44,586 bases of DNA from Bdellovibrionales bacterium (GTDB lineage Bacteria; Pseudomonadota; Alphaproteobacteria; UBA9219). A program made the translations under genes and the position numbers. The stretch is taken from NCBI GenBank assembly GCA_050180745.1, contig JBFXDW010000001.1, positions 1-44,586 of the forward strand. Reading direction: 5' to 3'. Below the pieces are notes generated by a model that worked only from the letters and a program-made list of their open reading frames with translations, was not told where the DNA came from and made no database searches. Shown piece by piece: positions 11,998 through 38,711 of the stretch (its first letter is position 1; every line of letters starts with the position of its first letter).

Positions 11998-13209
11998 TTA
12001 GACTCCTTTTGTTTTGTTACGGGCTGCGTAGATCGCCGCCGTGTCGATCTTTGCTTCGGCGGATGGCATTGGCGTTGGAACATGTCCTGAGATTTCCGTG
12101 GCCTCTGCCTGCTTGACTTTTGTCTCCAAAAGAACCTGCCTGATGTCTGCGACAGGAACGGCTTTGGAAATGAAGGCGTTCGCTTTCTCAGTCATGCCTG
12201 CGATTGCGCACAAGTCATTTACCTCTTTGACGTAGGCCATAGCTTTCTCGTGTGCTTCGACCTTTGCTCGTTCGACAAGCGCTTCTGTCGACATTTGAGG
12301 TTCAAGAGGGGATTCCTCCGTCTGAACGGACGGAGTTTCTTTTGGTTTACTCATACTGTTCACCTTTCTGTTGATGATTGAGGGTTGAAGAGATAAAGAT
12401 GCCGCCAAATCGTTCATAGCGTCATCAAACGTGCCGAGCGTGTCGGCAAGACCAGCGGCAACGGCCTCTTCGCCAAAGAAGAGCGCAGCTTCGGTTTTGC
12501 GGATTGCAGCAGGAGTTACCCCACGTCTATCCGCAACGTCTTGAACAAAGATGTTGTAAATGCGATCAACTTCGACCTGTAAGGCGGTGCGCGCCGGATC
12601 TGATAAAGGCTCATGCTGGGAATAATCGTTCTTCCGTTTTCCAGCAAAAACAGCCGTGTATTTTAATCCTTCGTCTTCATCGGCCTGGCTTTGATCCAAA
12701 TGAACAGCGATCACACCGATAGAACCAACACCAGCCGTGCGAGAGACGTAAATTTTCTCTGCCGCAGAAGCCAATATATAAGCTGCCGAGAAACTTTCCT
12801 CATTAGCGACAGCCCAGACAGGTTTTGTTTGCCGCGCGGCATAGATTTGATCGGCTAAATCAAATACGCCGGAGGCTTCCCCTCCTGGGCTATCGATATC
12901 TAAAAGAATGGCCCGAACGGACATGTCTGACACAGCTTGTGCGATCTGCGCTGAAACTTCTGCATAACTTGTCAGACCGCTCAAAGCTTCAAGACCCATC
13001 GTGCGCCGCACGAGCGTGCCAAGAATTGGAATAATGGCAATACCATCGGGCGTGATCTGATAGGAGCGTGAATGTCCGCTTCCTTCTTTGGGAGGAAGAA
13101 CGTCTCCTTGTAACCGTGGAGCAATTACGCCAAGAATTACTTCCAGCTTGGCGTGGCTAATCATTAAAGGCGTAGAGAAAATACGCCCCGCAATATGTGG
13201 CAGGATCAT
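11998..13209 (-). CDS. S49-family (SppA/ClpP-like) head maturation protease / scaffold (gpC-like)
   Basis: 403-aa ORF with ILLDIDSPGGEASGVFDLADQIY and SAAYILASAAEKIYVS motifs. It has an ATGA overlap with the portal gene. Confidence 0.9.
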   Translation of the reverse strand: MILPHIAGRIFSTPLMISHAKLEVILGVIAPRLQGDVLPPKEGSGHSRSYQITPDGIAIIPILGTLVRRTMGLEALSGLTSYAEVSAQIAQAVSDMSVRAILLDIDSPGGEASGVFDLADQIYAARQTKPVWAVANEESFSAAYILASAAEKIYVSRTAGVGSIGVIAVHLDQSQADEDEGLKYTAVFAGKRKNDYSQHEPLSDPARTALQVEVDRIYNIFVQDVADRRGVTPAAIRKTEAALFFGEEAVAAGLADTLGTFDDAMNDLAASLSLQPSIINRKVNSMSKPKETPSVQTEESPLEPQMSTEALVERAKVEAHEKAMAYVKEVNDLCAIAGMTEKANAFISKAVPVADIRQVLLETKVKQAEATEISGHVPTPMPSAEAKIDTAAIYAARNKTKGV

Positions 13210-14744
13210 GCTTTGTCTTTCTTTTCTGAGGGAACGTCGTCCGTATTTTCGTCTTCTTCCTGTTCTTCCGGTTTTTCATCGTCTTCCGATGTTTGGGAAA
13301 CCGATGGTGAAGAAGTCGTGCTCGACTGTATGCCGAGTTCCTTTTTGTGCGCCTGATCGTTAGCAATACGCTGGAATGTCTCGTCTACGTTATTGCCTTC
13401 AGCTTCAATAATATCGGATGGAGCCTTCCACCCCATCTCCTGAGCGATTTGTTCGGCCTGACGATCTTTAAGAGGGTCAACCCACTCCCATTTCGGCTTA
13501 ATCCACTTAACGCGATTGTAAAGACGGGGGTTTTGAGCAAATCCAGGCAGATGAATCGCTCCAGAAAGCACAGCCGTTTGTATCCATCGTTTCCAGATGG
13601 GGCGGCAAAGTTGAAAAATAAGAGTCGCTTCTTGAAACTGATTGAGGCGGCGGCGGAACTCGACCGTTCCCGCTCTGATGCTCGAATAATTGGCGGCCTT
13701 AAGATCGCCCGTGGTATTGACGTAGGGAACGCCGAGCGCAGCGGAAGCGGCTAAAAGATTACGATATTGAAAAGGCTCGTAAGCACCACCGACATCGGCA
13801 GGCGTAGAAAACTTAATGTCTTCACCAGGGAGCAACACCTGCATCGTACCAGGAGAAAGTCCAGCAAGAGCAGCGCCCATCGCATCGGCTTCACTTTCAC
13901 CGACTAGATTGTCTTCTTGGCTTTCCTTGGTAATGAAGCCCGCGAACAAGGCTGCGATTTTTTTGCGATCTAATTCGGCATCGTCATATTGATCCAACAA
14001 GAACAACTTAACCAGCGCAGGGGCCACCCACGGCACGCCACGGATCTGCCCAGGCCTCTGCGGACGGTAGATGTGCAGCACTTCCGAAGCCTGAACGCGC
14101 ACGATCTCGCCCTTATTGCCTGTTTCCGTGCTGTCGCCAGGATGTTTGCAATAAAAGTGATAGGCAACGCGCTGACCTATCCTATTAAACTCGATCCCAC
14201 AGCGCACAACATTGCCCGAAGATCCCAACTCGGTCTTGGAGATCGGCAACATCTCGCTCTCCAAGAGCTGAAGCTGCAGAGGAACGACAAGCCCGTCCGA
14301 CAATCGCCGAGGACGAAAGCGCACAAAGCATTCACCCGCCTCAAAAAGTGCATGCGCGATCAATGCCTGCATGCCATAGAAATCCGTCAGCCCATCGGCA
14401 TCGGATTCCAAAATCCAGTCCTTCCAAAGTTGAAGGACATCATTTTTAACGGCCTGATCCTCAATGAGGCTGGATGGGCGTATGCCGTCACCTACGGCGT
14501 TAGACGCAAAACTGTTCGCTGCGTTTGAAGCATATGGATTTGAGCGCACGATTTGTCTTGCCCGCGCCCTAAGTAAATCGCCGCCGCTTGAGACGAGCGT
14601 ATTGATATTTGCTTCCGTTGCCCGCCATGCAATCAGCCTGCGCTTATTCATGGCTCCTTCAAAACCGCCTGCAAGAGCGGACATGGACAAACGTCCGGTG
14701 GCAGCGTATTTGACCGCTGTCCCGATACGGGAAAACAAATTCAT
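13206..14744 (-). CDS. Portal protein, lambda family
   Basis: 512-aa ORF with N-terminus ...NKRRLIAWRATEANINTLVSSGGDLLRARARQIVRSNPYASNAANSFASNAVGDGIRP and an acidic C-terminal tail. It lies between the gpW and protease genes. Confidence 0.9.
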   Translation of the reverse strand: MNLFSRIGTAVKYAATGRLSMSALAGGFEGAMNKRRLIAWRATEANINTLVSSGGDLLRARARQIVRSNPYASNAANSFASNAVGDGIRPSSLIEDQAVKNDVLQLWKDWILESDADGLTDFYGMQALIAHALFEAGECFVRFRPRRLSDGLVVPLQLQLLESEMLPISKTELGSSGNVVRCGIEFNRIGQRVAYHFYCKHPGDSTETGNKGEIVRVQASEVLHIYRPQRPGQIRGVPWVAPALVKLFLLDQYDDAELDRKKIAALFAGFITKESQEDNLVGESEADAMGAALAGLSPGTMQVLLPGEDIKFSTPADVGGAYEPFQYRNLLAASAALGVPYVNTTGDLKAANYSSIRAGTVEFRRRLNQFQEATLIFQLCRPIWKRWIQTAVLSGAIHLPGFAQNPRLYNRVKWIKPKWEWVDPLKDRQAEQIAQEMGWKAPSDIIEAEGNNVDETFQRIANDQAHKKELGIQSSTTSSPSVSQTSEDDEKPEEQEEDENTDDVPSEKKDKA

Positions 14745-14759
14745 ATGTAGGAATCCTTC

Positions 14760-14966
14760 TTAAAGGTCTTTTTCAGCGTAAATCTTGATCCGGCGCACCT
14801 GTGTTTTGCCGCTATCTTTAGCTAGCCCTTGTTCGACCTCGGCCAATGCCGCTTTCAGCTCATCCATTGACCGATATTGTACTGAATTGCCGTCATAAGA
14901 GAGGCTCAGCACGCCACTCGCGATGGCCGCTTTTAAAGCATCACGTTGTGCTATGGTGTAAGTCAT
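14760..14966 (-). CDS. Head-to-tail joining protein gpW family
   Basis: 68-aa ORF (MTYTIAQRDALKAAIASGVLSLSYDGNSVQYRSMDELKAALAEVE) in the lambda-type position upstream of the portal gene. Unlike lambda, the terminase gene is not adjacent: the plus-strand insert at 14989-15498 separates them. Confidence 0.8.
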   Translation of the reverse strand: MTYTIAQRDALKAAIASGVLSLSYDGNSVQYRSMDELKAALAEVEQGLAKDSGKTQVRRIKIYAEKDL

Positions 14967-14988
14967 TCATTTATCTCATGAGGTTAAA

Positions 14989-15498
14989 ATGGCATCAGAC
15001 ACAACGCTTCTCGGAGCCGCAGGCGAATATTACGTAATGTCAGAATTGCTCCGTCGTGGGTTTATCGCGGCACTTGCCCCGCAAGGCGCACCCAATACAG
15101 ATATTGTCGTTACCGATCTGGAAGGACATCGTCTTTGTTCCATACAGGTTAAAACGCGCAGGCAAATCGGTGCAGACGGTGGATGGCACATGCGGCCTAA
15201 ACATGAGGAAATAACTGGAGATCGACTTTTCTATTGTTTTGTCGATCTCGGAAAGGATTCCTCAGACATTCCTCAACTCTTTATTGTTCCAAGTAAAATC
15301 GTGGCTGATGTTCTGAGAACGACCCACAGATACTGGCTTAAAAAACCAGGAAAGAACGGAAGAGTTCATAAAGATTCCCAAGTACGCCGTCTGCTGCCAA
15401 GTTACTCCAATTTGTACGGAGACGAAAAAACACCGTACAAAGATGGTTGGCTGGAAAAATTTAGAAACAACTGGACCCTTCTAGGACTCGAAACATAA
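14989..15498 (+). CDS. PD-(D/E)XK-type endonuclease-like protein (Hjc/intron-associated nuclease-like core); opposite-strand moron
   Basis: 169-aa ORF with a GAGG RBS. It carries GAAGEYYVMSELLRRGFIAALAPQGAPNTDIVVTD...CSIQVKT, i.e. a D...(Q/E)xK nuclease-core pattern. It is the only plus-strand gene within the packaging/head block. Confidence 0.55.
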   Translation: MASDTTLLGAAGEYYVMSELLRRGFIAALAPQGAPNTDIVVTDLEGHRLCSIQVKTRRQIGADGGWHMRPKHEEITGDRLFYCFVDLGKDSSDIPQLFIVPSKIVADVLRTTHRYWLKKPGKNGRVHKDSQVRRLLPSYSNLYGDEKTPYKDGWLEKFRNNWTLLGLET

Positions 15499-15509
15499 GG
15501 ATAGAAAGC

Positions 15510-17444
15510 TTAAACATAGCCACTCCTAATGATACGTCTGGTTCGTGGTTGCAGGCTATTGATTACCCTTTCTTCATGAACCTGTGGCTTTTGAACGCTC
15601 TCTTCAAACTTTCTCCAGCGACCATCTGAAAAACGGTCGATACCGAGAGTCCAAGCAGCGGCGCGCGCGTAGACGCGGCAATCCAATGCCTCATTGCGTT
15701 CACGTAACTTTTGCCATTCCACTCGACTGAAGCCGCGTTTATTTTTTATTGTGACAAGCTGTTCGGCGGTCAGCTGTTTAATCCATTCCGTTTCGATGCC
15801 TTCCGGCAGATGAATTGTGCCAGACGGAAAGACTACGCCTTCCTGAAGCTCTTCCTTGGTCGGACGGGCAAGGCGCAAGAAACGATAAGTTTCTGTCTTG
15901 AAAGTTGATACGGCCACCGTCCAAAGTTTCGCACCGCGCCGAATTTTGCGTCCGCTTTCGTTCGCATCCACATAAGTGGGGCCAGAGACAGGGCTTGCTC
16001 GGTTAAATTTGTCTGAGCCTCTGACGGCGATGACTTGCATTGATCCCATGCGTCGTGTCCACGCGTAAACGGTCGGCCCTTCAAAACCAGCGTCTATGGC
16101 TAACTTTGCAATAGGCAACCGCGTGCCGTTTTCATGCGACCACGTCTTTGACAGAAGCTCTGTAAGCGTTTGCCATGCCGCTTGATCGTCTGGCCCGCCA
16201 GGAATGACGATATGTTCGACAAGCCAACTTTCAAGACCGCGTCCCCATGCCCAGATATCAATCTCGATACGATCCTTCTGAACATCGGCCCCTGCCGTCA
16301 GGAATAATCCGTCAGCAGGAATTGTTCCGATCCGATAAGGTTCACACCTATCTGAGAGTATCTGCCAATCAGGCGCTTCGCCGCTTTCGATCCATGTCTC
16401 ACCAAGGACGCTGTTCTTAAATCCTTTCAAGGCTTCATCCTTTCCTTGAGCCGCTTCCCAATCACGGGCGATGCGTTCCCAACTGAGCCAGCCATAAGGC
16501 GAATACAAACTTGATAAATGAAATCCGATGGTCAGCGGATCATTGCTTTGCCGTGAAGCACGCCATTCGCCGTGTGCCAGCATCACCGTTTTGTGATGTT
16601 CTTTGATCCGTCCTTCACAATGTTCGCAATGATAAGCGACCGTTTCCGGTCTTCCTTTTTCCCAGCGCAGGCGTTCGAAACGCAGAACCTGTTTGTGCCC
16701 GCAAAAGGGACAAGGCACATAATATTTGCGTTGATCGCTGGCCTCGTACTCGCTTTCAATACGAGAGAAGCCTTTTATTGTTGGCGTAGAACATAAGAAA
16801 AGCTTACGTCGCCATGCGAAGGTGCGTGTTCGCGCTTCGGCTAAAAGGACGGGATCACCTTCTTCACCAGCGCTTGCTGGGTAAGCGTCGATTTCATCCA
16901 GAAATAGATACCGTACAGGCATAGAACGAAGACCGACCGCGCTGTTTGCGCCAGTCATGACGAGAATCCCGCCTGGGAATTCCTTGCTGAGGACGGTATT
17001 GCCACTATCGCGTGCCCGTGCGGGGGCAACGCGTGCCCGCAATACGGGGCATTCCTCGATCATCGGATCAATACGCTGCTGACTGGAACGCCGAGCCATC
17101 TCAACGGTTGGATTCACCATCATAGTCGGCCCAGCCGCGTGATGGATGATGTAACCAATCCAGTTGTTTCCGAACTCAGTTCCTCCGAGTTGTGCTCCTT
17201 TCATCAGAACGATACGCTGATAAGGCGAAGACGGAGACAGCGCGTCCATAATCTCGCGCCCGTAAGGGGTTCGAGCGGTTCGCCACGGGCCTGCTTCGTT
17301 TGCTCCACGCGGTGACAAAATGCGGTACTCGTCTGACCACGTTGCAACCGTGTGATCTGGATCCGGTCTAATGCCGTCCGCCCAATTGCTCATGATCTCA
17401 TCGGCCCCATCAAATGAGGCAATGATTTCTTCAACTGTGATCAT
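15510..17444 (-). CDS. Terminase large subunit, lambda GpA family
   Basis: 644-aa ORF with the Walker-A-like MKGAQLGGTEFGNNWIGY, FLDEIDAY, and a CxxC...CxxC zinc motif (CPFCGHKQ...CEHCEG). Confidence 0.92.
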   Translation of the reverse strand: MITVEEIIASFDGADEIMSNWADGIRPDPDHTVATWSDEYRILSPRGANEAGPWRTARTPYGREIMDALSPSSPYQRIVLMKGAQLGGTEFGNNWIGYIIHHAAGPTMMVNPTVEMARRSSQQRIDPMIEECPVLRARVAPARARDSGNTVLSKEFPGGILVMTGANSAVGLRSMPVRYLFLDEIDAYPASAGEEGDPVLLAEARTRTFAWRRKLFLCSTPTIKGFSRIESEYEASDQRKYYVPCPFCGHKQVLRFERLRWEKGRPETVAYHCEHCEGRIKEHHKTVMLAHGEWRASRQSNDPLTIGFHLSSLYSPYGWLSWERIARDWEAAQGKDEALKGFKNSVLGETWIESGEAPDWQILSDRCEPYRIGTIPADGLFLTAGADVQKDRIEIDIWAWGRGLESWLVEHIVIPGGPDDQAAWQTLTELLSKTWSHENGTRLPIAKLAIDAGFEGPTVYAWTRRMGSMQVIAVRGSDKFNRASPVSGPTYVDANESGRKIRRGAKLWTVAVSTFKTETYRFLRLARPTKEELQEGVVFPSGTIHLPEGIETEWIKQLTAEQLVTIKNKRGFSRVEWQKLRERNEALDCRVYARAAAWTLGIDRFSDGRWRKFEESVQKPQVHEERVINSLQPRTRRIIRSGYV

Positions 17445-17980
17445 GAGCGTAAATTGATTTTAATCTCTGCAAGTTGTTCCAAATGTTCACGCACAAGCTT
17501 TTCGAGTGCTGTTTGAACGGTGTGCGTATCCGCACCGATCTCTGCCGCGAACGTCGCCGCGACACGCGTGGGCCACATTTGCCATGCATCCCGTTCCTGC
17601 CGCGCCAACTGATAAACAAGAGATGTCGCTTGTGTCCGGTCGACTAATTCGCCCTTGAGCTTTTGAACACGCAGCTTTCGCTCTTGCGCTTTCAGAACTT
17701 CATTCGCCGTACGGGCCTGAACGAAATTGGTGTTTCCCCCTGCGGAGACGTGACCGCTTTCTTGCAACGTTTCTTGCACTGATTGTAATGCTGCCTTTGG
17801 AACGGGCTTCTTTTCTCGCACTTGGGATGGATCGGTGTTGTCCTTTAAGGATGCAAGTGCTTTGTCGGAGTCAATACTTCCATCCGCTTCAAGCGTGATC
17901 CGCCCTGAAGCGATTGCTTTTTGCACTGCGCCTCGGCTTTTGCCCCACAAGGCGGCGAATTCTCGTTGACTGACTCCCAT
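17441..17980 (-). CDS. Terminase small subunit (N-terminal HTH)
   Basis: 179-aa ORF with an ATGA overlap with the large subunit. N-terminal HTH: SQREFAALWGKSRGAVQKAIASGRI. Confidence 0.75.
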   Translation of the reverse strand: MGVSQREFAALWGKSRGAVQKAIASGRITLEADGSIDSDKALASLKDNTDPSQVREKKPVPKAALQSVQETLQESGHVSAGGNTNFVQARTANEVLKAQERKLRVQKLKGELVDRTQATSLVYQLARQERDAWQMWPTRVAATFAAEIGADTHTVQTALEKLVREHLEQLAEIKINLRS

Positions 17981-18182
17981 AGATCATGTTCCTGCGCTCC
18001 AGCATCGTCTCCTGACGATCATTAAATGATCGAGATTGGCCTAGAAAAGCCATCTGATTGCTCCTTATCTACTTGATAAATGCTGCGAATGAAGCGTTCA
18101 TGTCATTCATTGCAGTCGCGGTTGCGCGTAGCGCAGAGCAGTCGCAATAAAATAGTGACAACAATTTTTAAGGAGATCGATT

Positions 18183-18605
18183 ATGTCGAAAAAACCAAGC
18201 AAAACGGGTGCAAAAACGCCCTCCAAAGTCGTAAAACGGCCTGCCAAAAACCTCGTCAAAACGAAAGCCCAAAGCAACGGCAAGCCAACCAATGACGCAG
18301 CCCTTTCTGTGCCCATGCAAGCGGGTCTTGCAGCCGTTGAAGCGATGCCGGGGACCAAGACCCCCAGAGAAGGGAGTAAACTCGCAAAGCTTGTCGAAAT
18401 GTTGGAGCGTCCCGAAGGAGCGACCATTGAACAAATTATTGAAGCCACCGAATGGAAGCCGCACACTGCGCGCGCTGCAATTTCGCACACGCTAGGCAAA
18501 AAACGTGGTTACCAAATCGTTTCCGAAAGACCCGTAAAAGGGCACTCTGTTGTGACAAACGCACCTGAATACGGTCAGCGCATTTACAAAATTATTAAAG
18601 ACTAA
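18183..18605 (+). CDS. DUF3489-like small protein
   Basis: 140-aa ORF with an AAGGAG RBS and a basic N-terminal tail. The segment GSKLAKLVEMLERPEGATIEQIIEATEWKPHTARAAIS resembles the DUF3489 signature from memory. Confidence 0.6.
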   Translation: MSKKPSKTGAKTPSKVVKRPAKNLVKTKAQSNGKPTNDAALSVPMQAGLAAVEAMPGTKTPREGSKLAKLVEMLERPEGATIEQIIEATEWKPHTARAAISHTLGKKRGYQIVSERPVKGHSVVTNAPEYGQRIYKIIKD

Positions 18606-18620
18606 CCCATCATTTTATCC

Positions 18621-18657
18621 AAGCAATGGTTGATTATTTAACAATCAATCATTGCTT
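18621..18657 (+). terminator. Hairpin downstream of the DUF3489-like gene
   Basis: aagcaatggttgatt - atttaac - aatcaatcattgctt forms a 15-bp stem with 1 mismatch. There is no clear T-run, so it may be a terminator or a protein-binding palindrome. Confidence 0.4.
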
Positions 18658-18758
18658 ATCTTCGCCATAAAATGAGGTCGAATTGACTTGATAATCAAGC
18701 CCAGAAGAGCGTTAATGTACATGTGATTAGGAACAAAACATTTTTAACGGAGGCTATT

Positions 18759-19295
18759 ATGAGAAATTACAAACCACTTCCAACAGCCAATAAAGCATGG
18801 GGTTTCTGGGGTACTTGCGAACATGCGGGTTACAATACACAAATGGCATGGGATGCCATGAGTGAACATATTGTTGAACGCTACGATCTAACCCCAGAAC
18901 ATACACGCGACTTGCTTGACTCGAAATTCGGTCGGCATCTTGTTGACGAACTATCCTTTATCGAAGGCGGCCCCGTCAGCAAGAAAGCGATTGTCGATCA
19001 CATAACAAAACTTTTAAAGGACAGAAAATGGTGTCTCTATTTTGGTGATGCAATTAACGCAACAGGCACATCGCCCGAATACAATGCAGCAAGAGAAGCT
19101 CAAGCGGATCGCTATTACACCGCCAAAGAAAAACTCACCAAACAACTAACAAGCATGGCTAACCGCGTGCACGCTCCTGTCAACGCTGGGCGCAAAATGC
19201 CAAAAGACTTAACCTCGCAAGATATAAAAACCATCAAGACGGCTTACGCTAAAATCATCGAAGCCAGCGATATCCTAGAAATCATCGATGTCTAA
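18759..19295 (+). CDS. Hypothetical protein
   Basis: ORF 18723..19295, with the start moved to ATG 18759, which has a GGAGG RBS 7 nt upstream. No motif recognised. Confidence 0.7.
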   Translation: MRNYKPLPTANKAWGFWGTCEHAGYNTQMAWDAMSEHIVERYDLTPEHTRDLLDSKFGRHLVDELSFIEGGPVSKKAIVDHITKLLKDRKWCLYFGDAINATGTSPEYNAAREAQADRYYTAKEKLTKQLTSMANRVHAPVNAGRKMPKDLTSQDIKTIKTAYAKIIEASDILEIIDV

Positions 19296-19319
19296 AATCC
19301 ATATATAGATCTGCTTATT

Positions 19320-19814
19320 TTACTTTTTCCATAGCCGTTTTTTTAATAAAACAAATGTCTTTTTTATGGGAACGGGAGTATAACTTTTTTCAATAGCTGT
19401 TTGAAGATGAAGCAACTTTTTATATATCAAATCAGCCTTTTCCGTATCAGAACATCGTTCACTTGAAAAGAAATCTTCTCTAGTAGCTATTTGCCTAATA
19501 TCTTTAACTCTCCAAAGAACATGCTCTTTTGTTCCACAAAAAAATATACTACTTCGAGATAAATCGTTCAACTTATGAGAAAGACTCCCAAGCAATCGGA
19601 TTATTCTATGACATTGAGACTGTAAATCTTCACTAGGAATGTCCGCTGCTGATTTGCACCAAAAATCACATGCTTGTTCTTTAATCTCATCTGACAACTT
19701 ACAAGCATCAGAGACACAACTTTTTGCTTTACCGTTATAATGCCCTATACAATAGGTTACAGCGGAAGGAATAAATGGCCAAGCCAGCTTCACTATGTCT
19801 TCAAGTTCCAACAA
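19320..19814 (-). CDS. Hypothetical Cys-rich protein, third gene of the STAS/GHKL cassette
   Basis: 164-aa ORF with a TTG start 2 nt after the upstream stop. It has no internal Met and eight Cys residues. It is AT-rich like the two upstream genes. Confidence 0.55.
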   Translation of the reverse strand: MLELEDIVKLAWPFIPSAVTYCIGHYNGKAKSCVSDACKLSDEIKEQACDFWCKSAADIPSEDLQSQCHRIIRLLGSLSHKLNDLSRSSIFFCGTKEHVLWRVKDIRQIATREDFFSSERCSDTEKADLIYKKLLHLQTAIEKSYTPVPIKKTFVLLKKRLWKK

Positions 19815-19816
19815 AG

Positions 19817-20128
19817 CTACTCCGGATTTGCTTGATGAATATATTCAAGAATTTCTTTCTTAAGCTCCTCATCATCACTAACCAAAACAATTTTAGACAA
19901 CAAGTCTTCCGCAGATAGGCCCTCTACTCTAATCAAGCCACCGAAGGCCTCTTCTAAAAATGAAGAGCCATAGCCTTCTGTCCCATCCAATTCTATTTCA
20001 ACAGAACTCCCCTTTTGAATTGCAGGCAATAACATCTCTGTTCTAAATGCTTGACCACTGCGAGGCCCTTCATTTGTGTATCTTCCTGCAGGAAAAGGAG
20101 AGAAATCCTTTGCTATGTTAATCTTCAT
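19817..20128 (-). CDS. STAS-like domain protein (DUF4325 type)
   Basis: The start is set at ATG 20128 (MKINIAKDFSPFPAGRYTNEGPRSGQAFRTEMLLPAIQKGSSVEIELDGTEGYGSSFLEEAFGGLIR), which overlaps the upstream stop (TGATG). Confidence 0.7.
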   Translation of the reverse strand: MKINIAKDFSPFPAGRYTNEGPRSGQAFRTEMLLPAIQKGSSVEIELDGTEGYGSSFLEEAFGGLIRVEGLSAEDLLSKIVLVSDDEELKKEILEYIHQANPE

Positions 20129-21243
20129 CACGCCACCGCCTTTTCTGGATCTTGTTTTATGGCTTCTACAGCAGACAACAAGAACCTCCATTCAATTATA
20201 GTCCCAGGCAGTACGCCCTTCAAACCTTGTATTTTCTCTTCAGTACTGTGTGCATACTCATACATTCCTCCTGAACTATATACCCTCATACACGAAGAAG
20301 GGTTAGCGTTAATAATTTCTTTCATTCCTGGCATTCCCTTGCCTCTATATCCTTTTTTAGTTTGGGTTCTCTTAATTTCCATGGCCGCTTTAATCATTTT
20401 AGCATCATCGTTAACTGGCATCCTTACCATAGAAAGTAATTCTCTGAGATATTCTAAACTATATTTCCTTGGCAAGGCCTTAGGAATACCAATCCCAAGA
20501 TCACAAAAAGAAATTGTTAGCTCTTTTGTTGTCCAATCATAAGCACCAAACATCCACCAACAACCAAACCCCAGCTTGTGCTTTTGTAACGGATAGGCAT
20601 GCTGGAAAGAATTTGTCATTGCTTCTGAAATAGCCTTATAAAGTTTTTTCATGTCAGAAATAGGACCAAATGTTTCAACAATTTTTTCTCTGAATGGACC
20701 ATATGGTGACGCATCAACATTATTCCCAGAGCAAAATCTTAAGAACTCTTTTGTAGGCTCCGCTTTCTCTGAATATGACGGTGGATTCTTAACATTCATA
20801 AGATCAAAAAGCCCCATATCATTTAACAGATGCCTCATCATAGGATCCCATTGTGTTTGATCATGAAGAGTTATTTGCTGGTGAGATTTCTTACTCCAAC
20901 AATATAAAACAGAAGCCAACATAAGTGCGGCTGCTGGACTAATAGATTTTAATTCACTAAAATCCAAACGAATTTTAGTTCCCTTATTCTGTAAATAGAA
21001 ATGAAGTCCATTGATAAAATCTATTGTTTCTGCTTGATTATGATCCAAACAAATAACACTTGGGACTGTTATTATTTTAATCGGAATATGTCTAGACTTC
21101 CGCCGTGAAAGACGTTTACTGTATTCTCCATCAATATCGTGTTTCCTGCGCACTTTTAGCGCACACCGATAGGCATGCTTCCTTTGACGACGCAACAACA
21201 ATTTGCGTAGCGCAGCTTTTTTCTTAGGTTTTATTCGTTTCAT
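20128..21243 (-). CDS. GHKL (Bergerat-fold) ATPase/kinase-like protein with a basic N-terminus and a STAS-like region
   Basis: 371-aa ORF. N-box ISEAMTNSFQHAY, G1 box FCDLGIGIP, G2-like GYRGKGMPGM. An upstream STAS-like segment reads KIRLDFSELKSISPAAALMLASVL, and the N-terminus is Lys/Arg-rich. Confidence 0.7.
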   Translation of the reverse strand: MKRIKPKKKAALRKLLLRRQRKHAYRCALKVRRKHDIDGEYSKRLSRRKSRHIPIKIITVPSVICLDHNQAETIDFINGLHFYLQNKGTKIRLDFSELKSISPAAALMLASVLYCWSKKSHQQITLHDQTQWDPMMRHLLNDMGLFDLMNVKNPPSYSEKAEPTKEFLRFCSGNNVDASPYGPFREKIVETFGPISDMKKLYKAISEAMTNSFQHAYPLQKHKLGFGCWWMFGAYDWTTKELTISFCDLGIGIPKALPRKYSLEYLRELLSMVRMPVNDDAKMIKAAMEIKRTQTKKGYRGKGMPGMKEIINANPSSCMRVYSSGGMYEYAHSTEEKIQGLKGVLPGTIIEWRFLLSAVEAIKQDPEKAVA

Positions 21244-21319
21244 AGCTAAAAAGAGAATCAGTAGTTACATCGGTAAGATTAACCGTCCTCTGCTAATCCA
21301 CAAAACAAAAACGTTACTT

Positions 21320-22537
21320 TTACACGTTCTTTATAGCTTTTTGACCTGTAAACTCTTCCCAACGTTGGACGATAACATCGCAATATTTTGGATCCAATTC
21401 GATAAGCCGCGCCTGACGACCTGATTTCTCACAAGCGATCATCGTGCTGCCAGATCCGCCAAAACAATCAAGAACGATGTCACGGCTCTTACTGCTATTA
21501 CGAATAGCGCGCTCAACCAATTCAACAGGTTTCATCGTCGGATGCAAATCATTCTTCGTTGGCTTGTTAACAAACCAAACATCCCCCTGATCGCGCGCGC
21601 CGCACCAGAAATGATCCGTCCCTTGTTTCCATCCATAGAGGATAGGCTCGTACTGACGCTGGTAATCTGAGCGACCAAGTGTGAAGGTATTCTTCGCCCA
21701 GATCACAAATGTTGACCATTTGCCGCCTGCTGCAACAAAAACTTTTTGCAAGGTGTGAAGTTCGCTAGATGACATGCAAACATAAATCGCGCCTTTGCAA
21801 ACGGTCAGCATGTTAACGCAAGCGTCGTAGAGAAAGGTTTCAAACCCATCCCCTAAATTGTCATTCATGATGCGGCGGTCATTACCGCGCATCTTGTCCT
21901 TGGCGGCGTTGCCATAATCTACATTGTATGGCGGATCCGTAAACACCATATCAGCCAACGCCCCGTCCAACACGCGTTCAACATTTTCAAGAACGGTACT
22001 GTCTCCGCATAGCAGACGATGCTTGCCAAGAAGATACATATCTCCAAGTTTTGTCTTTGGTTCTATTGGTGCTTCGGGCACGACATCATCATCCGTCTGG
22101 CCTTCACCGAACCCGACATCTTCAAGTGCTTTTGCCAACTCTTCTTCACTGAAACCTGTCTTTTCCAGATCATAATCAAGTGCCATAAGATCTCGAAACT
22201 CAAGTTCAAGATATTCGTCATCCCATTCTGCCCAAGCCGCAGAGCGGTTCGCTATCAGCCGAAAGGCTTTAACTTGAGCTTCTGTAAGATCGTCTGCAAG
22301 AGCCACTGGTACGGTTTCCATACCCAGTTTTTGAGCGGCTTTAAGTCGCAGATGCCCATCAACTATCGATCCATCTGAACGAGCAACAATGGGGATGCGA
22401 AACCCAAATTCATGTATTGCGGCAACCATCTTGTCAATTACATGATCGTTTTTGCGCGGGTTCCTTGCATAGGGAATGAGTTTGTCGATAGGCCAAAGCT
22501 CAATATGATCCGCAATATTAAGTTCCAAAGAGGTCAT
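21320..22537 (-). CDS. ParB-N domain fused to an N6-adenine/N4-cytosine DNA methyltransferase (beta class)
   Basis: The start is set at ATG 22537 (MTSLELNI...). ParB box IPIVARSDGSIVDGHLRLKAAQKLG, catalytic MVFTDPPYNV, AdoMet motif VLDCFGGSGST. Confidence 0.9.
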   Translation of the reverse strand: MTSLELNIADHIELWPIDKLIPYARNPRKNDHVIDKMVAAIHEFGFRIPIVARSDGSIVDGHLRLKAAQKLGMETVPVALADDLTEAQVKAFRLIANRSAAWAEWDDEYLELEFRDLMALDYDLEKTGFSEEELAKALEDVGFGEGQTDDDVVPEAPIEPKTKLGDMYLLGKHRLLCGDSTVLENVERVLDGALADMVFTDPPYNVDYGNAAKDKMRGNDRRIMNDNLGDGFETFLYDACVNMLTVCKGAIYVCMSSSELHTLQKVFVAAGGKWSTFVIWAKNTFTLGRSDYQRQYEPILYGWKQGTDHFWCGARDQGDVWFVNKPTKNDLHPTMKPVELVERAIRNSSKSRDIVLDCFGGSGSTMIACEKSGRQARLIELDPKYCDVIVQRWEEFTGQKAIKNV

Positions 22538-23781
22538 TCTGTTCCGTTTTCTGTAATTGCTTGAGTTGCCAAAGTGCAAAACGCATATGCTGCTGCCAAA
22601 GGCACCACGCCGTTTCCACAGGTGCGGAGCCTGTCCACCCGACAGGCCATCCCATCAGCCATTCGACAAATAGAGGGTTTAAGACTGGCTGGAGTTCTTT
22701 CCCATCTGGCGTAGTCGTTTGGTGTTGGAGGCCAGGTTGATACGTCAAGGGATGTGCCATCATTGAAAGATTGACTTGTTTCCCGTTGGCTATCCTTTTC
22801 TGAATGCATGGGTTGGATAGATTTCCCCGTTCCCTGTAGTCCGTTGATTGAGGGGTTGGCCACGCTTTGCTGATCTCGTTCAGGCATGCCCCGTGATCGG
22901 GACTCGTACTGCCTGGCTCCCGCGCTCTTGGCGTTGGCCATTGATTTCGTGCTGCCCTGTAATCTTTTCCGTTTCTCGCCTTTTCCAGATCCTGCTTCGT
23001 GTAAGGAAAACCTTCCGGCTGCATTATTGTTTCGGCAAGGCTCGGCGTGCGAAGGACATTGCGTCCGTCCTTGCGGATCATCTTTTCTGGTGGTCTTGCT
23101 CTTGCGACAAGAGAGTCTGTCGCTGTTGCGGTCGGCCACATCACAGCACTGACTTCCAGTCGCCCCTTGGGGTTCCCATCCAAGATTTCCTTCTGTGATG
23201 CCCCGTTTGCCGAAGACACCCTTGCGGTAGGCCAAGATGAACAATCGTTCGCGTTTGTGCGGCGCACCCACTTCTTCCGCTGTAAACAAGCCCGCCTTAA
23301 CGCGGTAACCCATTCGTTGAAGGTCATCGTGGACTTGTTCGAACCCCAGCCGTAGATGTCCGCCAACATTCTCGAAGAAGCAGATGGGCGGTTTGATCTC
23401 GCGGACGATCCGCGCGACATCCGGCCAGAGGTGGCGCGGGTCTTTGTCTCCCAGTTTTTTTCCCGCAACGCTGAATGGCTGGCATGGATAGCCTCCATGA
23501 AGGATATCCACGAGGCCACGCCACGCTTTGCCTTTGAAGGTTTTAATGTCGTCCCAGACAGGCGCTGGATCCAAGGCCGCATCTTCCATCCGTGCCACGA
23601 GCGTGGACGCTGCGAAGCTTTCCCGCTCAACGTAACAAACAGTTCGGTATCCTGGCAGGGCAAGGTGCAGCCCAAGGTCGAGTCCGCCTGCGCCCGCGCA
23701 GAGCGAGAGTCCGAACAGCGCGCGCCTTTGCTTTGGGCATGCGTCATCGTCTCTGGCGGCAAGTAAAGCCAGACCATCCAA
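22534..23781 (-). CDS. DNA (cytosine-5)-methyltransferase whose middle (TRD) region looks frame-scrambled; possibly a pseudogene or recoded
   Basis: Frame A (415 aa) carries motif I LCAGAGGLDLG, IV GGYPCQPFS, VI FFENVGG, VIII PHKRERLFILA and X CGNGVVP. Its TGA overlaps the next ATG (ATGA). The middle 200 aa are low-complexity, whereas the overlapping frame B (22518..23777) encodes WPTATATD, WPTPRA, WPTPQSTD and NPLFVEWLMGWPVGWT. Confidence 0.7.
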   Translation of the reverse strand: MDGLALLAARDDDACPKQRRALFGLSLCAGAGGLDLGLHLALPGYRTVCYVERESFAASTLVARMEDAALDPAPVWDDIKTFKGKAWRGLVDILHGGYPCQPFSVAGKKLGDKDPRHLWPDVARIVREIKPPICFFENVGGHLRLGFEQVHDDLQRMGYRVKAGLFTAEEVGAPHKRERLFILAYRKGVFGKRGITEGNLGWEPQGATGSQCCDVADRNSDRLSCRKSKTTRKDDPQGRTQCPSHAEPCRNNNAAGRFSLHEAGSGKGEKRKRLQGSTKSMANAKSAGARQYESRSRGMPERDQQSVANPSINGLQGTGKSIQPMHSEKDSQRETSQSFNDGTSLDVSTWPPTPNDYARWERTPASLKPSICRMADGMACRVDRLRTCGNGVVPLAAAYAFCTLATQAITENGTE

Positions 23782-23797
23782 TGGGTACCTCTAAAGA

Positions 23798-24142
23798 TTA
23801 TTCTTGTTCAGAAAGACGTTTGCGAATTTTGTTTTCAATCGCTTCAACATCAACAAGGATGCTGATTTCATCGCTCATGATGATGCGGGGACATTTGTCC
23901 TGTTTGTATTCGCAAACATCCATGCCAAGAGAAAAAGCATCATCAAGAGAGAAACCTATTGATCGAAGATGGCGACACACGGCGAGATAAACGATCTCAT
24001 CGAATACAAATCTCCGAGCCTTTCCTCGACTTGGGTTGTGGAGCGGTGTAAAAAAATCTCTGGCGACCCACTGGTGCAGTTCATCTCTTGATACGCCGAG
24101 GCAACGGGTCACTTTTTCAATGCCGTAAGTTTTTACGCCCAT
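23798..24142 (-). CDS. Small HTH (MerR/excisionase-like) protein
   Basis: 114-aa ORF with an AAGGA RBS. Probable HTH: IEKVTRCLGVSRDELHQWVARDFF. Confidence 0.55.
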   Translation of the reverse strand: MGVKTYGIEKVTRCLGVSRDELHQWVARDFFTPLHNPSRGKARRFVFDEIVYLAVCRHLRSIGFSLDDAFSLGMDVCEYKQDKCPRIIMSDEISILVDVEAIENKIRKRLSEQE

Positions 24143-24380
24143 ATTTTTCCTTGTCTAAGAAGCCGGATCCCTTTGCCAAGGAATCCACCAAAGGAATCCA
24201 GCTATGATCCATTCGTTAAGTTTTTGTTTCTCTTAAGGAAACGGAAAGCTAACCAACAAACCACAACATGTTGTGGCTTCCCGCTTTTTATCCCTACATG
24301 TAGTGAAATATCGGGCCTCGCCCGCCCGCATAGGTTTTCGGGCAGGAAGTACCTTTTATTTCAGTGTGTTAGCTGATTTT

Positions 24381-24400
24381 CTCACATTATCTCACATTAT
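24381..24400. repeat. Tandem 10-mer ctcacattat x2 in a 550-nt non-coding gap
   Basis: Direct reading of the sequence. The gap also holds perfect palindromes at 24251-24266 and 24284-24293, plus other repeats. Confidence 0.8.
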
Positions 24401-24692
24401 CTTGCATGTGATTTATCGACGTTTTAAGAAAGATAAACCGCCTTAGCTTTCTTAACCGTCCGCCATGAACAATCTTACGAAAGACAACGGCCCTAAATTG
24501 GCAGCTCTAATCGCGTTTATGTGTATCAAGATTGTTTGGATATTCTTCAGCAAGGAGCCGATCCACTCTGATCGTTCGTTTCCCAACTATACCAAGCACT
24601 ATGCCAAAAAATGCGCAAAACACGCAGAACTAAAATGCGCATGGGGTTCCTTTATCAAATGAATAACTTAAATGTCGTTTGCGCATTTTTAC

Positions 24693-25124
24693 CTATCCGT
24701 TACGGATGTAGCGCTTGTAAGGAAGCTGGATTTTTTCATTCGGATTGTTGAGCCGATGAACAATTTTCATCAAACCAATCTTCCAATCATACTGCAATTT
24801 ACGAACCGACCAGCCAAGCTCAAGCGAGAGACGCTTCCAACGCACGCCCTCGGCACGCATCCAGATGAGACGCACTTCTTCACGCTCCAACCACAACAGC
24901 CAGATCATAACTTCTTCCATCTCTGTGATGTGCTTGGCCGATGGTGGGCTGGGCCGCATGTGATTGTCCTCCCATCCGTAAGCTTCCATTGCCTCACGGA
25001 CGATGGTCGGCCAAGCGTTGAAGTAGCCTTGCACCTTGACCTTGGGGAGCTTCTTCATTGTGTTGGCGGCTTGTTCAATACGGTCGGCCACATCCTTAAC
25101 GTTATGCTTTTTCCCTTTGCTCAT
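24693..25124 (-). CDS. Phage protein, DUF6362-like
   Basis: 143-aa ORF with an ATGA overlap with the upstream gene. The Trp-rich pattern WPTIVREAMEAYGW...EEVMIWLLWLEREEVRLIWMRAEGVRWKRLS resembles that family from memory. Confidence 0.6.
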   Translation of the reverse strand: MSKGKKHNVKDVADRIEQAANTMKKLPKVKVQGYFNAWPTIVREAMEAYGWEDNHMRPSPPSAKHITEMEEVMIWLLWLEREEVRLIWMRAEGVRWKRLSLELGWSVRKLQYDWKIGLMKIVHRLNNPNEKIQLPYKRYIRNG

Positions 25125-25435
25125 GCAGCCCTCCCATACATTCTGGCCTCAAGCATTTCACGCGCCCACTGGCAGCTATCAATCTTGGCAAACTGCAGGA
25201 GTGCCATGCGCACCTCCTCGCGGGTAGTGAAGCCATAGCGAAAGAGCATCTCCCCAAACAAAGCCTCTGGGGCTGACGCTTTGCGATGCCGCCACCCTGC
25301 ATCACAGGCTCCGCTTGTAGTGAAGCGCTTCTCACAGTGAGAGAACCTATCTCTCACGCGAACGTCATAGACCTTGCCCTTGTGGGAATAGCGCCAGTAC
25401 ACATTGGCATCCCTTGCTTTGATGTTAGCTTTCAT
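25121..25435 (-). CDS. Hypothetical phage protein
   Basis: 104-aa ORF that overlaps the primase-like gene end by 11 nt. Confidence 0.55.
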   Translation of the reverse strand: MKANIKARDANVYWRYSHKGKVYDVRVRDRFSHCEKRFTTSGACDAGWRHRKASAPEALFGEMLFRYGFTTREEVRMALLQFAKIDSCQWAREMLEARMYGRAA

Positions 25436-28400
25436 CAGCCTCTCCTTTCTTTATTGTGGATGAGTTTGGTACGGATTGTTCCGCGATCCTCTTGGCCATG
25501 TTGGGAGACAGCTGGTCGCCCATTTCCTCCAACCAAGAAGGCAAAGAGCCTTTGTGAGTGTCGTTTTGACACTCACTCAAACACTCACTTCTAAAATCCT
25601 TTTGTTCTGAAGGCGTTAGTGAGTGTGGGGGAGTCAGTGAGTGTTTTACGGGGTTACTTTGTGTATGCGCGTGCGCGCGTGCGTAAGTATTGGAAAAACA
25701 CTCACCACACTCACTACACTCACCAGCATCTTGATCTGTAAGGGAAATTTCGAGTGAGTGTGGGGGTGAGTGTGGGTTTTCAACACTCACACACTCACCG
25801 TACTTTTTGTAGGGGAGTGAGTGTTGTGAGTGTTTTACACCGCTTAAATTTTCACTGACAGCGAGTTGCCACGTCAAAGCACGTTGCCGCATCCTACCTG
25901 AAACGAGCGTAACGGAACGTCCTTCTTCAATTTCAAAGACCCGATCACGCATCTTGGCAAGCTGTTTACCAAGGCGTATCCGCCGTGATTGCTCCGAGCC
26001 TTTACCCAAAGGCAGGGCAATATCCCGATCTTCAACCAGCTGATACAGCTCTCCTGTACTCACATCCCTGTCAGTAAAACGCTCCCACCATGCCGTGATA
26101 AAACTGCGCCAGAGAGAGCCTTCCTCATCCGAAGCATCATAAAGATCATTGAGGTTGGTAAGAAAGCCGGGGATGCCAGCAAACCCCAAAATACCGCCGA
26201 TCACACGTGACCATTCCTCAAAGCTGCCTAAGCTTTGTGGCTGCGCGGGCTGTCCAGCTGACACCCAGCCTTGTACCAAAGTAAGACATGCAGCAACGAG
26301 CTGTGGCCTGTTGTCTTGCACCCATTTGGCAAGGTTCTTATGGCGAAAGCCTGACCGCCGCCAAGGTTGATCAACCCGCGCATCAAGGCGGGTACGGATG
26401 GCACGCCGCGCCATTTCATTGGAGAGAGCTGGGTTGTTGCCTGTGACCACCCATGCGCAGCGCACAGGAAAATTGGCCAGTTCACTGCGCCCAAGGATAC
26501 GATCTTCCCATGAGGTAGCCGTGACGGCAGCAGCCAAGGCCGCGCTGTCGAGGCGATAACGCAGATTATCAATAAACAAAAGTGCAGGCATGGCACGCAA
26601 GGCTGAAGTTAAACGCTTGCGCCACTCCTCCTCTGACCGCCCTTCGGTCATCACCTTAGCTGACATGCCCGTTGCAATGATGGCGATAATCTCAACAAGA
26701 AGGCTCGCTCCTGTGCCGGGCGTTGGCTTTTCAAACAAATGAATGGGTGTTGGCCCTGCAATCATGGAGCGCACAAAGGGCAGAAGCAAAAGCGCAACCG
26801 CATGGGCAAGTTCGGCTTCACCCAAGAAAGGAAAATCACCAAACAGATCATTTACAATAAGATCCCGCGCCGCTTTGATCTCTTCTGCCGAAGGGTTTTG
26901 CGGTATGGCAGGCAACACAAAGTCTTTTTGCGGCACATAAAACAATTTGGCCGCTTTATAATAGCCGGGCACTTGAATGATTTTGCCATCCGGCCCAAAG
27001 ACAGGCGTAGAGACAATGCCGCCGAGCACAGGAAGATTTGTGTGCGGCGTTGCCAGAATGTCTTTAATCACAGCCGCTGGGGGATGCGCTGGGATCAAAC
27101 GATCCTTTAACTTCCTGCGCCAGTCAATTTGACGGGCAAGAATGAACTTCATCCGGTCTTCTGTAATGGTCTGCGGCTTGGGCCTTCCGTCATCATCCAG
27201 ATCAACCCAAGTGGGCAGAAGAGAGAAACGGAACAGCCACGGCGGCTTGTTGGTTTCATAAATCCGATACCAGCATTGCTCTGCTAGGCTGGCCAGATCC
27301 CCATCATCCGACTGCATCACAGGCTTAATGGAATGCGTATCATCAAAACCAAAGGGTCTGTGTGGAAGGTGCTTGATCTCCATCTTGGGCGTGGGATCAA
27401 CAAGAGGAAGATCTTCATTCTTGTATTCCGCTGACTGCTCAACAATATTTGCGACTAGTAAGCTCCCTTTCCTGAGTAGTAAATCGTTGAAGTCCTCGCC
27501 TGCTTGTGGAGGCATGGCAATCCATACGCGCCGTCCTTCTGAAACAAGGCGTTTGGCTGTTGCCTCAGCCGATCGGAGGCCTGCACCGCTCTTATCATTG
27601 TCGGCCAGCAAGATAACGCGGCGAATATTTGATGGCAGGCGAAGCTTTTCCATACCGCTTGTCGAAAGCGAAGCCCACACAGGCAGATGCGGCACGCTTT
27701 GCACCACGGCCAGCCCCGTTTCGATACCTTCACTCACACCAACCAGTTCATTTGCCTTTTGCCCCAAATGAACCGCACCGCCCGCCACGGGGCCGAGCAT
27801 CATCTTAGCCTTGGGCACATCAGCTTTGCTTTTGCCATCCAGAGCAAGCCAAATACGATGAATGCCAACAGCTTGATCTTGCGCGTCACGCGCCAAGGCA
27901 ACCATAGCCGGATAGCCCATATTGGTCTCCCAATGCGCAAGATCGGGATGAAATAGAAGATCTTGCGTGTCGGGCAATTTCAAGCCCCGCGCTTCAAGAT
28001 AGGTTTGCACATGCGTGCCCGCCGCTAGCTGACAGCCGGAAAGGATGTAGCGGATCTCGTTTTGGGAGTTTTGGGACTGCTGTTCAGGGCGTGGGGTCGG
28101 ATATTTTTTATCTCCAACCTTCCACCCTGAAAGCTCGGCAGCATATTCAATCAAAAAGCGGCCAGACAGACCCGTGGCATGACCAAGCGTACCGATGGGG
28201 CCGCCGCCCTGATTGCTATCGAACTCATACCAATCACCAGCATGGGATCCCTGCAGCTTGATCGCACAGGATCCTTGTTTGTAAGGCGCGTCCCCCTTGA
28301 TGTTGGCCACACGCCAGTCTTTGCCGCTTTGTTTGCCTGATGGGAAATGTGCTGGAACCCAATGGCTGGCTTGATCCCGTAGGATCGAGACAACCGCATC

Positions 28401-38223: not shown

Positions 38224-38346
38224 AAATTATGGATGGCTCGATACAACAAATATATGTTGGATATAAGTCTAGGAAAAACGTGCTGGTACAACCTCAACCG
38301 CAGGTGTGGACGTGGATCACTTGAGTAGGAACAGCGTAGCGAATTG

Positions 38347-38705: not shown

Positions 38706-38711
38706 GGTTTT

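Follow-up and report, generated by a model that had tools for sequence, protein, structure and literature searches.

Immunity gated by phosphorylation, with a GHKL kinase acting on a STAS protein, was first described in 2026, in two wirings, one leading to the repressor CapS and the other to the PIN toxin VapC (Chambers et al., EMBO J 2026; PMC13373217). In the first, CapK, which combines a helix-turn-helix (HTH) with STAS and GHKL domains, is switched on by single-stranded DNA (ssDNA) and phosphorylates CapS, a STAS protein with a winged helix-turn-helix (wHTH), on a conserved serine; this phosphorylation de-represses adjacent immune operons, including those of the cyclic oligonucleotide-based anti-phage signalling system (CBASS), Bub, and others (PMC13373217). 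In the second, the vapKSC operon encodes VapK (STAS-GHKL), the STAS antitoxin VapS with its short C-terminal tail, and the VapC PIN toxin; VapS keeps VapC inactive by binding it, the phosphomimetic substitution S48E frees VapC, S48 is the experimentally defined phospho-acceptor, and the operon protects against phage Bas42 by approximately 2 logs (PMC13373217). CapK-type kinases also respond to DNA damage (PMC13373217). Here we compare with these systems a three-gene cassette, genes A, B and C, located on a 44.6-kb contig of a metagenome-assembled genome labelled "Bdellovibrionales bacterium"; the whole contig is referred to as the window. We conclude, largely by analogy, that the trio is most likely a widespread, uncharacterised sibling of VapKSC and CapKS and a kinase-triggered abortive-infection system.

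A previous sequence-only reading of the window had described three coupled minus-strand open reading frames (ORFs), and these were confirmed at 19320-21243 (Table 1) with the coordinates, the overlap, the TTG start and each quoted motif as claimed. The ATG of B and the TGA of A have one base in common (gcgTGATGaag), and the TTG start of C lies 2 nucleotides past the TAG of B, with a GGAG 5 nucleotides 5' of the TTG. An alternative reading of B, 124 amino acids long and starting at 20191, is possible; homologues all begin at the position of the 103-residue form. The NCBI annotation of C has 163 residues (AB7S81_00115).

The product of gene A consists of a polybasic N-terminal tail, a STAS-like domain and a GHKL domain. 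Its HATPase_c match falls under the Pfam cut-off (expectation value, E, 0.004), and an alignment of ten homologues revealed textbook Bergerat boxes: an N box with E207, N211 and H215, a G1 box D248-x-G250-x-G252, a G2 box G301-x-G303, and a G3 box G347-T348. Residues E207, N211, H215, D248, G250, G301 and G303 were identical in 85/85 unique homologues. The AlphaFold2 model, with a predicted local distance difference test score (pLDDT) of 64.6 and a predicted template modelling score (pTM) of 0.66, contains a long N-terminal helix, the STAS-like domain and an alpha/beta sandwich. When this model was compared with the PDB by Foldseek, the best matches were SpoIIAB structures (1th8, 1tid and 1l0o) with probabilities of 0.99-1.0 and borderline E values of 5e-3 to 1e-2, none being below 0.001; STAS domains and SiaB came next, with weak matches (5ezb, probability 0.84; 4xs5, probability 0.63). 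A sequence search of the PDB with A yielded a single match, to the N box of RsbW. Judged from its conserved residues and its predicted fold, A is a serine-kinase-like ATPase; in PHROGs it corresponds to phrog_3364, of unknown function. The GHKL kinase with a STAS/DUF4325 partner that the sequence-only reading had seen at the core of the cassette was thus upheld by the invariant boxes of A, by the Foldseek matches to SpoIIAB and STAS domains and by the Pfam assignment of B given below.

The N-terminal tail of A is strongly basic, with 21 lysines and arginines among the 50 residues preceding the STAS domain and a net charge over the N-terminal approximately 50 residues of +18 here and +14 at the family median. 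M1 and K2 are invariant in the ten-homologue alignment, and the AlphaFold2 model has helices at residues 6-34 and 41-48. No HTH family was matched in A in the family scan. We consider it plausible that the tail is a nucleic-acid- or membrane-binding element. The possibility that A's own STAS domain serves as the phospho-acceptor was rejected, the equivalent position varying between S, V, N and A among homologues.

The product of gene B matched Pfam DUF4325 (PF14213) with an E value of 5.7e-15 and a score of 55.2 bits against a cut-off of 23, and is laid out as one DUF4325 domain followed by a short acidic C-terminal helix of approximately 15 residues; the family as a whole is acidic, with a median net charge of -5.5. 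Residues S55, S56 and F57 of B were identical in 87/87 unique homologues and contain the predicted phospho-acceptor site. For comparison with the described systems, we took the VapK, VapS, CapK and CapS sequences from the supplementary files of PMC13373217. The VapS fragment belonged to the same Pfam family as B (E 3.7e-17), and B S55 aligned with VapS S48, the acceptor serine; CapS S54 (in DSSF) lined up with B S56 (in GSSF) in an alignment that was weak and at the level of a motif. The top PDB match of the B profile was also VapS (9z7o), with an E value of 0.39 that is not significant alone. In PHROGs, B is part of phrog_5816, of unknown function; its match was confined to the final 100 of 441 profile positions, which suggests that this family holds phage proteins in which DUF4325 is fused to a larger N-terminal part. 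When the 58-residue VapS fragment was searched against a large protein collection for a vapKSC locus, no candidate was obtained.

Profile alignment (hhalign) also connected A with the two described kinases. The A profile aligned with VapK with a probability of 78% and an E value of 1.8e-5 over 221 colinear columns spanning STAS and GHKL domains, and with CapK with a probability of 89% and an E value of 2e-6, the N-terminus of A lying outside the latter alignment. Placed next to VapKSC, the cassette has the same operon order of kinase, small STAS protein and effector, a colinear kinase, a STAS protein with a short C-terminal extension and an acceptor serine at the aligned position, and a frequent location near defence genes. 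It differs in that the third gene encodes a helical protein of approximately 150 residues with an N-terminal hydrophobic helix rather than a PIN nuclease, in that A carries a polybasic tail of approximately 50 residues whereas the STAS domain of VapK starts approximately 15 residues from its N-terminus, and in that the ssDNA contact made by VapK F54 is not conserved in A, at an identity of approximately 17%. The resemblance to CapK and CapS lies in the length of the kinase (371 residues for A and 368 for CapK), the common STAS-GHKL core, the SSF acceptor motif shared by B and CapS, and a location that often adjoins restriction-modification (R-M) systems. However, the HTH of CapK is replaced in A by a polybasic helix, the 103-residue B lacks the wHTH of CapS, and there is no regulated downstream immune operon: the neighbour downstream of C in the window is convergent, and the downstream neighbours in 70 loci are unrelated. 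Because it has no PIN nuclease, no CapK HTH, no CapS wHTH, no regulated operon and no conserved aromatic contact, the cassette is neither VapKSC nor CapKS, and would represent a third way of wiring this kinase-STAS trigger.

The sequence-only reading had not recognised the cassette as a named defence system, and the catalogues agree: none of the three proteins, whether from the window or from three further loci (L007, L001 and L025), matched a PADLOC-DB 2.0.0 model at E<=1. A literature search found no paper describing the trio in the library searched. The relevant items it returned were the study of Chambers et al. (PMC13373217), one descriptive phage genome paper, and a survey of PIN domains, which mentions VapC genes coupled to DUF4325.

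The third gene belongs to a very divergent family, of which the window copy is an outlying representative. The C protein matched a profile of the third-gene products of other loci with an E value of 1e-6, and the iterated profile with an E value of 1.8e-10. Because the next window ORF reached only 0.5 with the iterated profile, we take C to be a genuine, though divergent by sequence, member of a family of proteins of approximately 150 residues. No Pfam, PHROG or PADLOC family matched C, and no PIN domain was detected in it. The sequence-only reading had presented C as a Cys-rich protein; it does contain eight cysteines and no internal methionine, but the cysteines are not a defining trait, since relatives have a median of one and the cysteines do not align, and we therefore rejected Cys richness as a clue to metal binding or redox chemistry. 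What is conserved instead is a hydrophobic N-terminal helix, present in the third protein of 67/67 relatives and always within the first 45 residues, with a maximum Kyte-Doolittle value over 19 residues of at least 1.6 in 42/67 and at least 1.2 in 62/67. Third genes also share a pattern of the form "...YW ... LR.A.TGG.F...", and the 20 residues following the hydrophobic helix have a median net charge of +2 (range -3 to +5). The AlphaFold2 model of C was all helix, with a pTM of 0.27 and pLDDT values of 92-94 at residues 1-20, and Foldseek with this low-confidence model returned one match, at an E value of 5, and no structural neighbour. We describe C as a small helical protein and a putative membrane effector.

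The distribution of the trio was wide and its order strictly kept. A word-indexed search found just 12 relatives of A, and in the contigs it recovered A was always followed by a DUF4325 gene and then by an ORF of 143-157 residues without a Pfam family. In an exhaustive profile search with A, 3831 representatives passed a threshold of E<=1e-3 and 1086 passed E<=1e-30, so that the family comprises at least 1086 clusters at 50% identity at the latter threshold, almost all of them full length at 340-370 residues. Two representatives, P0066 and P0037, were longer, with 731 residues (match at 355-725) and 446 residues; these lengths imply N-terminal fusions. A scan of GTDB with one genome per species yielded 80 loci, 79 of them unique (L062 and L003 are one and the same contig), in Alpha-, Beta- and Gammaproteobacteria, Nitrospirota, Binatia, Desulfobacterota, Verrucomicrobiota and others. 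Gene B followed A in 80/80 of these loci, and the order A-B-C was kept in all 79 unique ones. In IMG/VR, 29 viral contigs contained A, and B and C were present in 26/26 of those reaching past it. On the third ORF, whose conservation the sequence-only reading had left to be checked, the answer was clear: after three profile iterations a C-family gene was found in 95/96 loci, the sole exception being a streptococcal two-gene variant. Searches at near-identity in DNA, with the cassette against Escherichia coli genomes and GenBank phages and with a P2-type version against E. coli, gave no matches.

The streptococcal variant (phiGBSVK-D and Javan132) resembles the trio in occupying a prophage moron slot and in placing a DUF4325 protein (E 9.6e-11) after a GHKL ATPase (HATPase_c_2, E 2e-5), and differs in its 298-residue kinase, its lack of a C-family gene and its identity of 21%. 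In Streptococcus phage phiGBSVK-D (L016, 2902-4091) and in Javan/LYGO9 prophages, this 298-residue ATPase and a 99-residue DUF4325 protein are found beside paratox. The streptococcal ATPase also weakly matches part of the PADLOC DrmA model (E 4.7e-6). Among copies of the trio itself, a few were altered: gene A is split into ORFs of 253 and 106 residues in L009/L010, is in two pieces in L073, and is interrupted by approximately 2 kb in L042, and in L031 an inserted transposase-like ORF shifts gene C approximately 3 kb away.

The sequence-only reading had inferred horizontal acquisition of an AT-rich cassette, and both parts of this were borne out. In the window the GC (guanine plus cytosine) fraction of the cassette was 0.375, against 0.493 for the remainder; it was 0.35-0.41 across 19200-21600 and approximately 0.50 on both sides. 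The cassette was below its flanks in GC in 71/79 loci, with a median difference of -9.5 points and a largest difference of -27. At 70 loci the immediate neighbours comprised 136 ORFs and 148 Pfam families, none recurring more than three times. A related lambda-like prophage from an uncultured alphaproteobacterium (L023, 5671-16260) carries, like the window, ParB-methylase, terminase gpA, portal and capsid E genes, and yet has the trio between terminase and portal, whereas in the window it lies between terminase and methylase genes. Because the cassette is AT-rich relative to its flanks, has no conserved neighbour and occupies different slots in related phages, we conclude that it is an autonomous, horizontally moving accessory module.

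The settings into which the cassette has moved allow other roles to be weighed. In P2-like prophages, for example one in Neisseria sp. HMSC06F02 (L081), the trio lies just downstream of the repressor gene, in the same orientation, before the tail genes and sometimes beside HicAB. In Marinobacter phage AS1 the trio (AS1_41/40/39) follows a CI repressor, as it does in Francisella phage KIRK, where Fhv_0046/47/48 are annotated "HP", "HP, DUF4325" and "HP, TM" (PMC7924643). An S24-type repressor was found within 6 kb in 15/29 viral contigs. One P2-like locus (L004, 8678-9887) has three tandem 133-residue Phage_CI_repr genes directly upstream of the trio, and its sister contig L005 has one. The usual position in temperate phages, directly downstream of the repressor and co-oriented with it, would suit a regulator that benefits the phage, in which the kinase-STAS pair senses DNA damage or the state of the host and steers a membrane protein acting in lysis timing, prophage induction or superinfection exclusion (Sie), with C in a holin/antiholin-like or Sie-like role; the small size of C with its one hydrophobic helix, and the response of CapK-type kinases to DNA damage (PMC13373217), point the same way. 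We nevertheless think such a role improbable: most of the 79 genome loci had no phage genes within 10 kb, as assayed with a limited panel of probes, and many were flanked by housekeeping or R-M genes, and the slot differs between the lambda-like phages of the window and L023, which is the behaviour of a moron rather than of a core lysis/lysogeny gene.

Other neighbours were more in keeping with defence. In Zhongshania the trio adjoins a type I R-M system and VapC, and within 6 kb of 15 genome loci we found IetAS, a CBASS cyclase with TRIP13, SoFic, AriA-like ATPases, HEC-01 and a type IIG R-M system, all of these being raw co-occurrences. The flanks of the same 15 loci also hold transposases, tyrosine integrases, P2 and lambda structural genes and housekeeping genes, and in Methyloprofundus the neighbours of the trio are ordinary chromosomal genes. 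A compact, AT-rich, mobile three-gene unit, copies of which have been broken by insertion or frameshift (L009/L010, L031, L042 and L073) in the manner typical of selfish modules, could also be a pure toxin-antitoxin addiction module that stabilises its mobile carriers and has no anti-phage role. For simple addiction, however, kinase-gated release would be superfluous; the sister system VapKSC protects against phage (PMC13373217), and co-location with R-M and other defence genes fits defence at least equally well. We rate pure addiction as a slim prospect, slimmer than a regulator serving the phage.

A separate comparison is with the partner-switching systems SpoIIAB/SpoIIAA and RsbW/RsbV, which the sequence-only reading had taken as its model. 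They share with the trio a GHKL serine kinase and a STAS substrate with a serine starting helix 2, and they include the nearest solved structures to the catalytic domain of A. They differ in that the trio lacks a sigma factor and a PP2C phosphatase, in that A has an additional STAS domain and a basic tail, and in the mobile, phage-borne context of the trio. With no sigma factor or phosphatase partner, this model did not hold, and CapKS and VapKSC are the proper reference. A conventional stress-sigma regulon of either type, present on a phage by chance, would account for the resemblance of the kinase-STAS pair and for weak, sub-threshold NCBIfam matches of A to SpoIIAB and RsbW. The scores of A against the two anti-sigma kinase equivalog models were 15.7 bits for TIGR01925 (cut-off 135) and 13.4 bits for NF003144 (cut-off 145), approximately 10% of the cut-offs. 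No sigma-factor or PP2C family was found in the eight window ORFs scanned (13206-19295 and 21320-28457) or among the 25 most recurrent families of the 136 immediate neighbours at 70 loci, and the neighbours are not conserved. The sequence-only reading would have been refuted by homologues lying mainly in chromosomal stress-sigma regulons; the trio instead turned up repeatedly in accessory slots of prophages and close to R-M or other defence genes, not in sigma-factor regulons. Chance carriage of such a regulon is therefore exceedingly improbable, and a sigma-factor regulon is effectively excluded.

The same systems suggest a different orientation of the switch. In SpoIIAB/RsbW systems the kinase itself binds the regulated protein, as SpoIIAB holds sigma F. 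By this precedent A could sequester C until unphosphorylated B displaced it, the trigger being a fall in ATP/ADP or a loss of kinase activity during infection; the cassette would then sense energy state rather than nucleic acid, and the outcome, a freed membrane effector and abortive infection, would be the same. That the catalytic domain of A is structurally nearest to SpoIIAB, that its N box is nearest to RsbW in sequence, and that the aromatic residue of VapK and CapK in contact with ssDNA is not conserved in A all favor this orientation. In the nearest characterised relatives, however, it is the STAS protein that binds the regulated partner, the VapC toxin in one case and DNA in that of CapS (PMC13373217), and A's own STAS domain and polybasic tail, which have no counterpart in SpoIIAB, look ligand-sensing. 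We regard a kinase that holds C as unlikely, to about the same degree as a regulator working for the phage.

We instead take VapKSC as the pattern and propose, at roughly even odds, that the cassette is an abortive-infection or toxin-antitoxin-type unit, self-contained and mobile, that belongs to the CapK/VapK class and in which B gates the membrane effector C. The proposal builds on the domain identities, the conservation of catalytic and acceptor residues, the strict synteny, the mobility, and the prophage and defence contexts observed above. From VapKSC we carry over that A phosphorylates B and that B complexes with C, the nature of the trigger, and the ideas that C is toxic and that the result is anti-phage. 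On this proposal A would be a serine kinase, with its STAS-like domain as the sensor, its GHKL domain as the catalytic part and a polybasic tail that could bind nucleic acid, and B would be both its single-domain substrate and an antitoxin that binds C and keeps it inactive. C would be anchored in the inner membrane through its N-terminal hydrophobic helix, with its C-terminal part in the cytoplasm, an arrangement that would fit the mild excess of positive charge just past the helix, which is suggestive only. A cue derived from an infecting phage, by analogy ssDNA or another nucleic acid, would activate A, and active A would phosphorylate B at Ser55 or Ser56. Phosphorylated B would release C, which would harm membrane integrity or otherwise arrest the cell, so that the infecting phage would fail to finish its cycle and clonal relatives of the resident prophage would be protected. 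The fuller statement, that the trio is the first example of a widespread, unnamed anti-phage system in which a nucleic-acid-sensing STAS-GHKL kinase phosphorylates a DUF4325 antitoxin and thereby unleashes a single-pass membrane toxin, we hold more tentatively, at somewhat less than an even chance.

Several observations weigh against this proposal. A is only remotely homologous to VapK and CapK, with 17-20% identity, and B resembles CapS at the level of a motif. VapK F54, the equivalent of CapK W68, aligned with K99 of A, in a column occupied by E, K, R, Q or N in 85 homologues; because the ssDNA-contact aromatic falls on this variable, non-aromatic column, the trigger of A may differ from the ssDNA of VapK and CapK, and we kept the term "ssDNA sensor" for A as an analogy only. 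In the window copy of C the maximum Kyte-Doolittle value was 1.06, the second lowest of 67, and because its hydrophobic segment is this weak its insertion into the membrane is uncertain. C had no recognisable toxin domain, no confident model and no structural relative in the searches described above. The cassette encodes no phosphatase to reset the switch, and many of the genome loci are flanked by housekeeping genes.

If the proposal is true, the trio would add to the two described wirings of the kinase-STAS switch a third, to a small membrane protein, and if the fuller statement holds, the CapK/VapK kinase-STAS pair would be a general, exchangeable trigger wired to transcription through CapS, to an RNase through VapC, and to a membrane effector, with the polybasic tail perhaps setting a new trigger specificity. 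Confirmation would give the catalogues a new defence system missed by PADLOC 2.0, assign a function to phrog_3364, to part of DUF4325 and to the third-gene family, and provide a test case for the modularity of kinase-STAS triggers and for the signal read by the polybasic tail. In these searches the kinase family ran to more than 1000 diverse clusters, spread over Proteobacteria, Nitrospirota, Desulfobacterota and others, and its carriers include P2-like, lambda-like and other temperate phages.

The remaining features of the window are those of a phage. Family scans of the ORFs found phage-like gene content along the entire contig, of the lambda-like temperate-phage type, in the order baseplate hub, tape measure, capsid E, lambda-type portal and terminase gpA; after the terminase come two small opposite-strand ORFs and then the cassette, and past the cassette a ParB-N6/N4 methylase, a C5 methylase, a MerR-like protein, a primase, a helicase, an AAA_24 protein and a large serine recombinase. 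The cassette thus lies between packaging and DNA-methylase genes, as the sequence-only reading had it, with the two opposite-strand ORFs on the packaging side. That reading had also called the contig a prophage: it is phage-like and carries a serine recombinase, but integration is not demonstrated, because we looked in the 44.6-kb contig for a terminal overlap and a tRNA and found neither; for want of the same features we rejected the idea of a circular or complete phage genome. A scan for consensus promoters and terminators gave sites no commoner than in shuffled sequence.

Table 1. Positions of the cassette, its parts and its neighbours in the window
Feature	Position	Strand	Remarks
Gene A	20128-21243	minus	371 residues, ATG start; NCBI AB7S81_00125
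A residues 1-54, polybasic N-terminal tail	21082-21243	minus	AlphaFold2 and charge count
A residues 55-148, STAS-like domain, containing KIRLDFSELKSISPAAALMLASVL	20800-21081	minus	beta-alpha-beta-alpha-beta-alpha; AlphaFold2 secondary structure
A residues ~165-357, GHKL (Bergerat) ATP-binding domain	20173-20751	minus	homologue alignment and Foldseek
Gene B	19817-20128	minus	103 residues, ATG start
Codons of B Ser55-Ser56 (tct tca), in GYGSSFLEEAFGG	19961-19966	minus	predicted phospho-acceptor site
Gene C	19320-19814	minus	164 residues, TTG start
C residues 7-25 (IVKLAWPFIPSAVTYCIGH), N-terminal hydrophobic segment	19740-19796	minus	weaker than in most relatives
Lambda-type terminase gpA	15510-17444		one flank of the cassette, with portal
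ORF for DUF3489 protein	18183-18605	plus	between terminase-small-like ORF and cassette
ORF for 190-residue protein	18723-19295	plus	matches phrog_8020, function unknown
Spacer, methylase stop to A start	21244-21319	minus	76 nucleotides; possible own promoter
ParB_N-N6/N4 methylase	21320-22579		other flank, directly upstream of the cassette
C5 methylase	22534-23781		upstream flank of the cassette

Some smaller features of the neighbourhood were also recorded. The two plus-strand ORFs on the packaging side face against all their neighbours, and the second stops 24 nucleotides from the stop of C. The ParB_N-N6/N4 and C5 methylase ORFs share approximately 45 nucleotides, and a 419-residue ORF in an alternative frame (22518-23777) overlaps the C5 gene. 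Beyond the serine recombinase (36480-37868) there is a second C5 cytosine methylase gene at 38773-40188, followed by ORFs at 40201-41052 and 41068-42192, the latter without a Pfam match, and by an SNF2/ResIII helicase gene at 41937-43871. This part of the window, from 36480 to 43871, may represent either a further module with a restriction-like or defence role, or host DNA that flanks the prophage.

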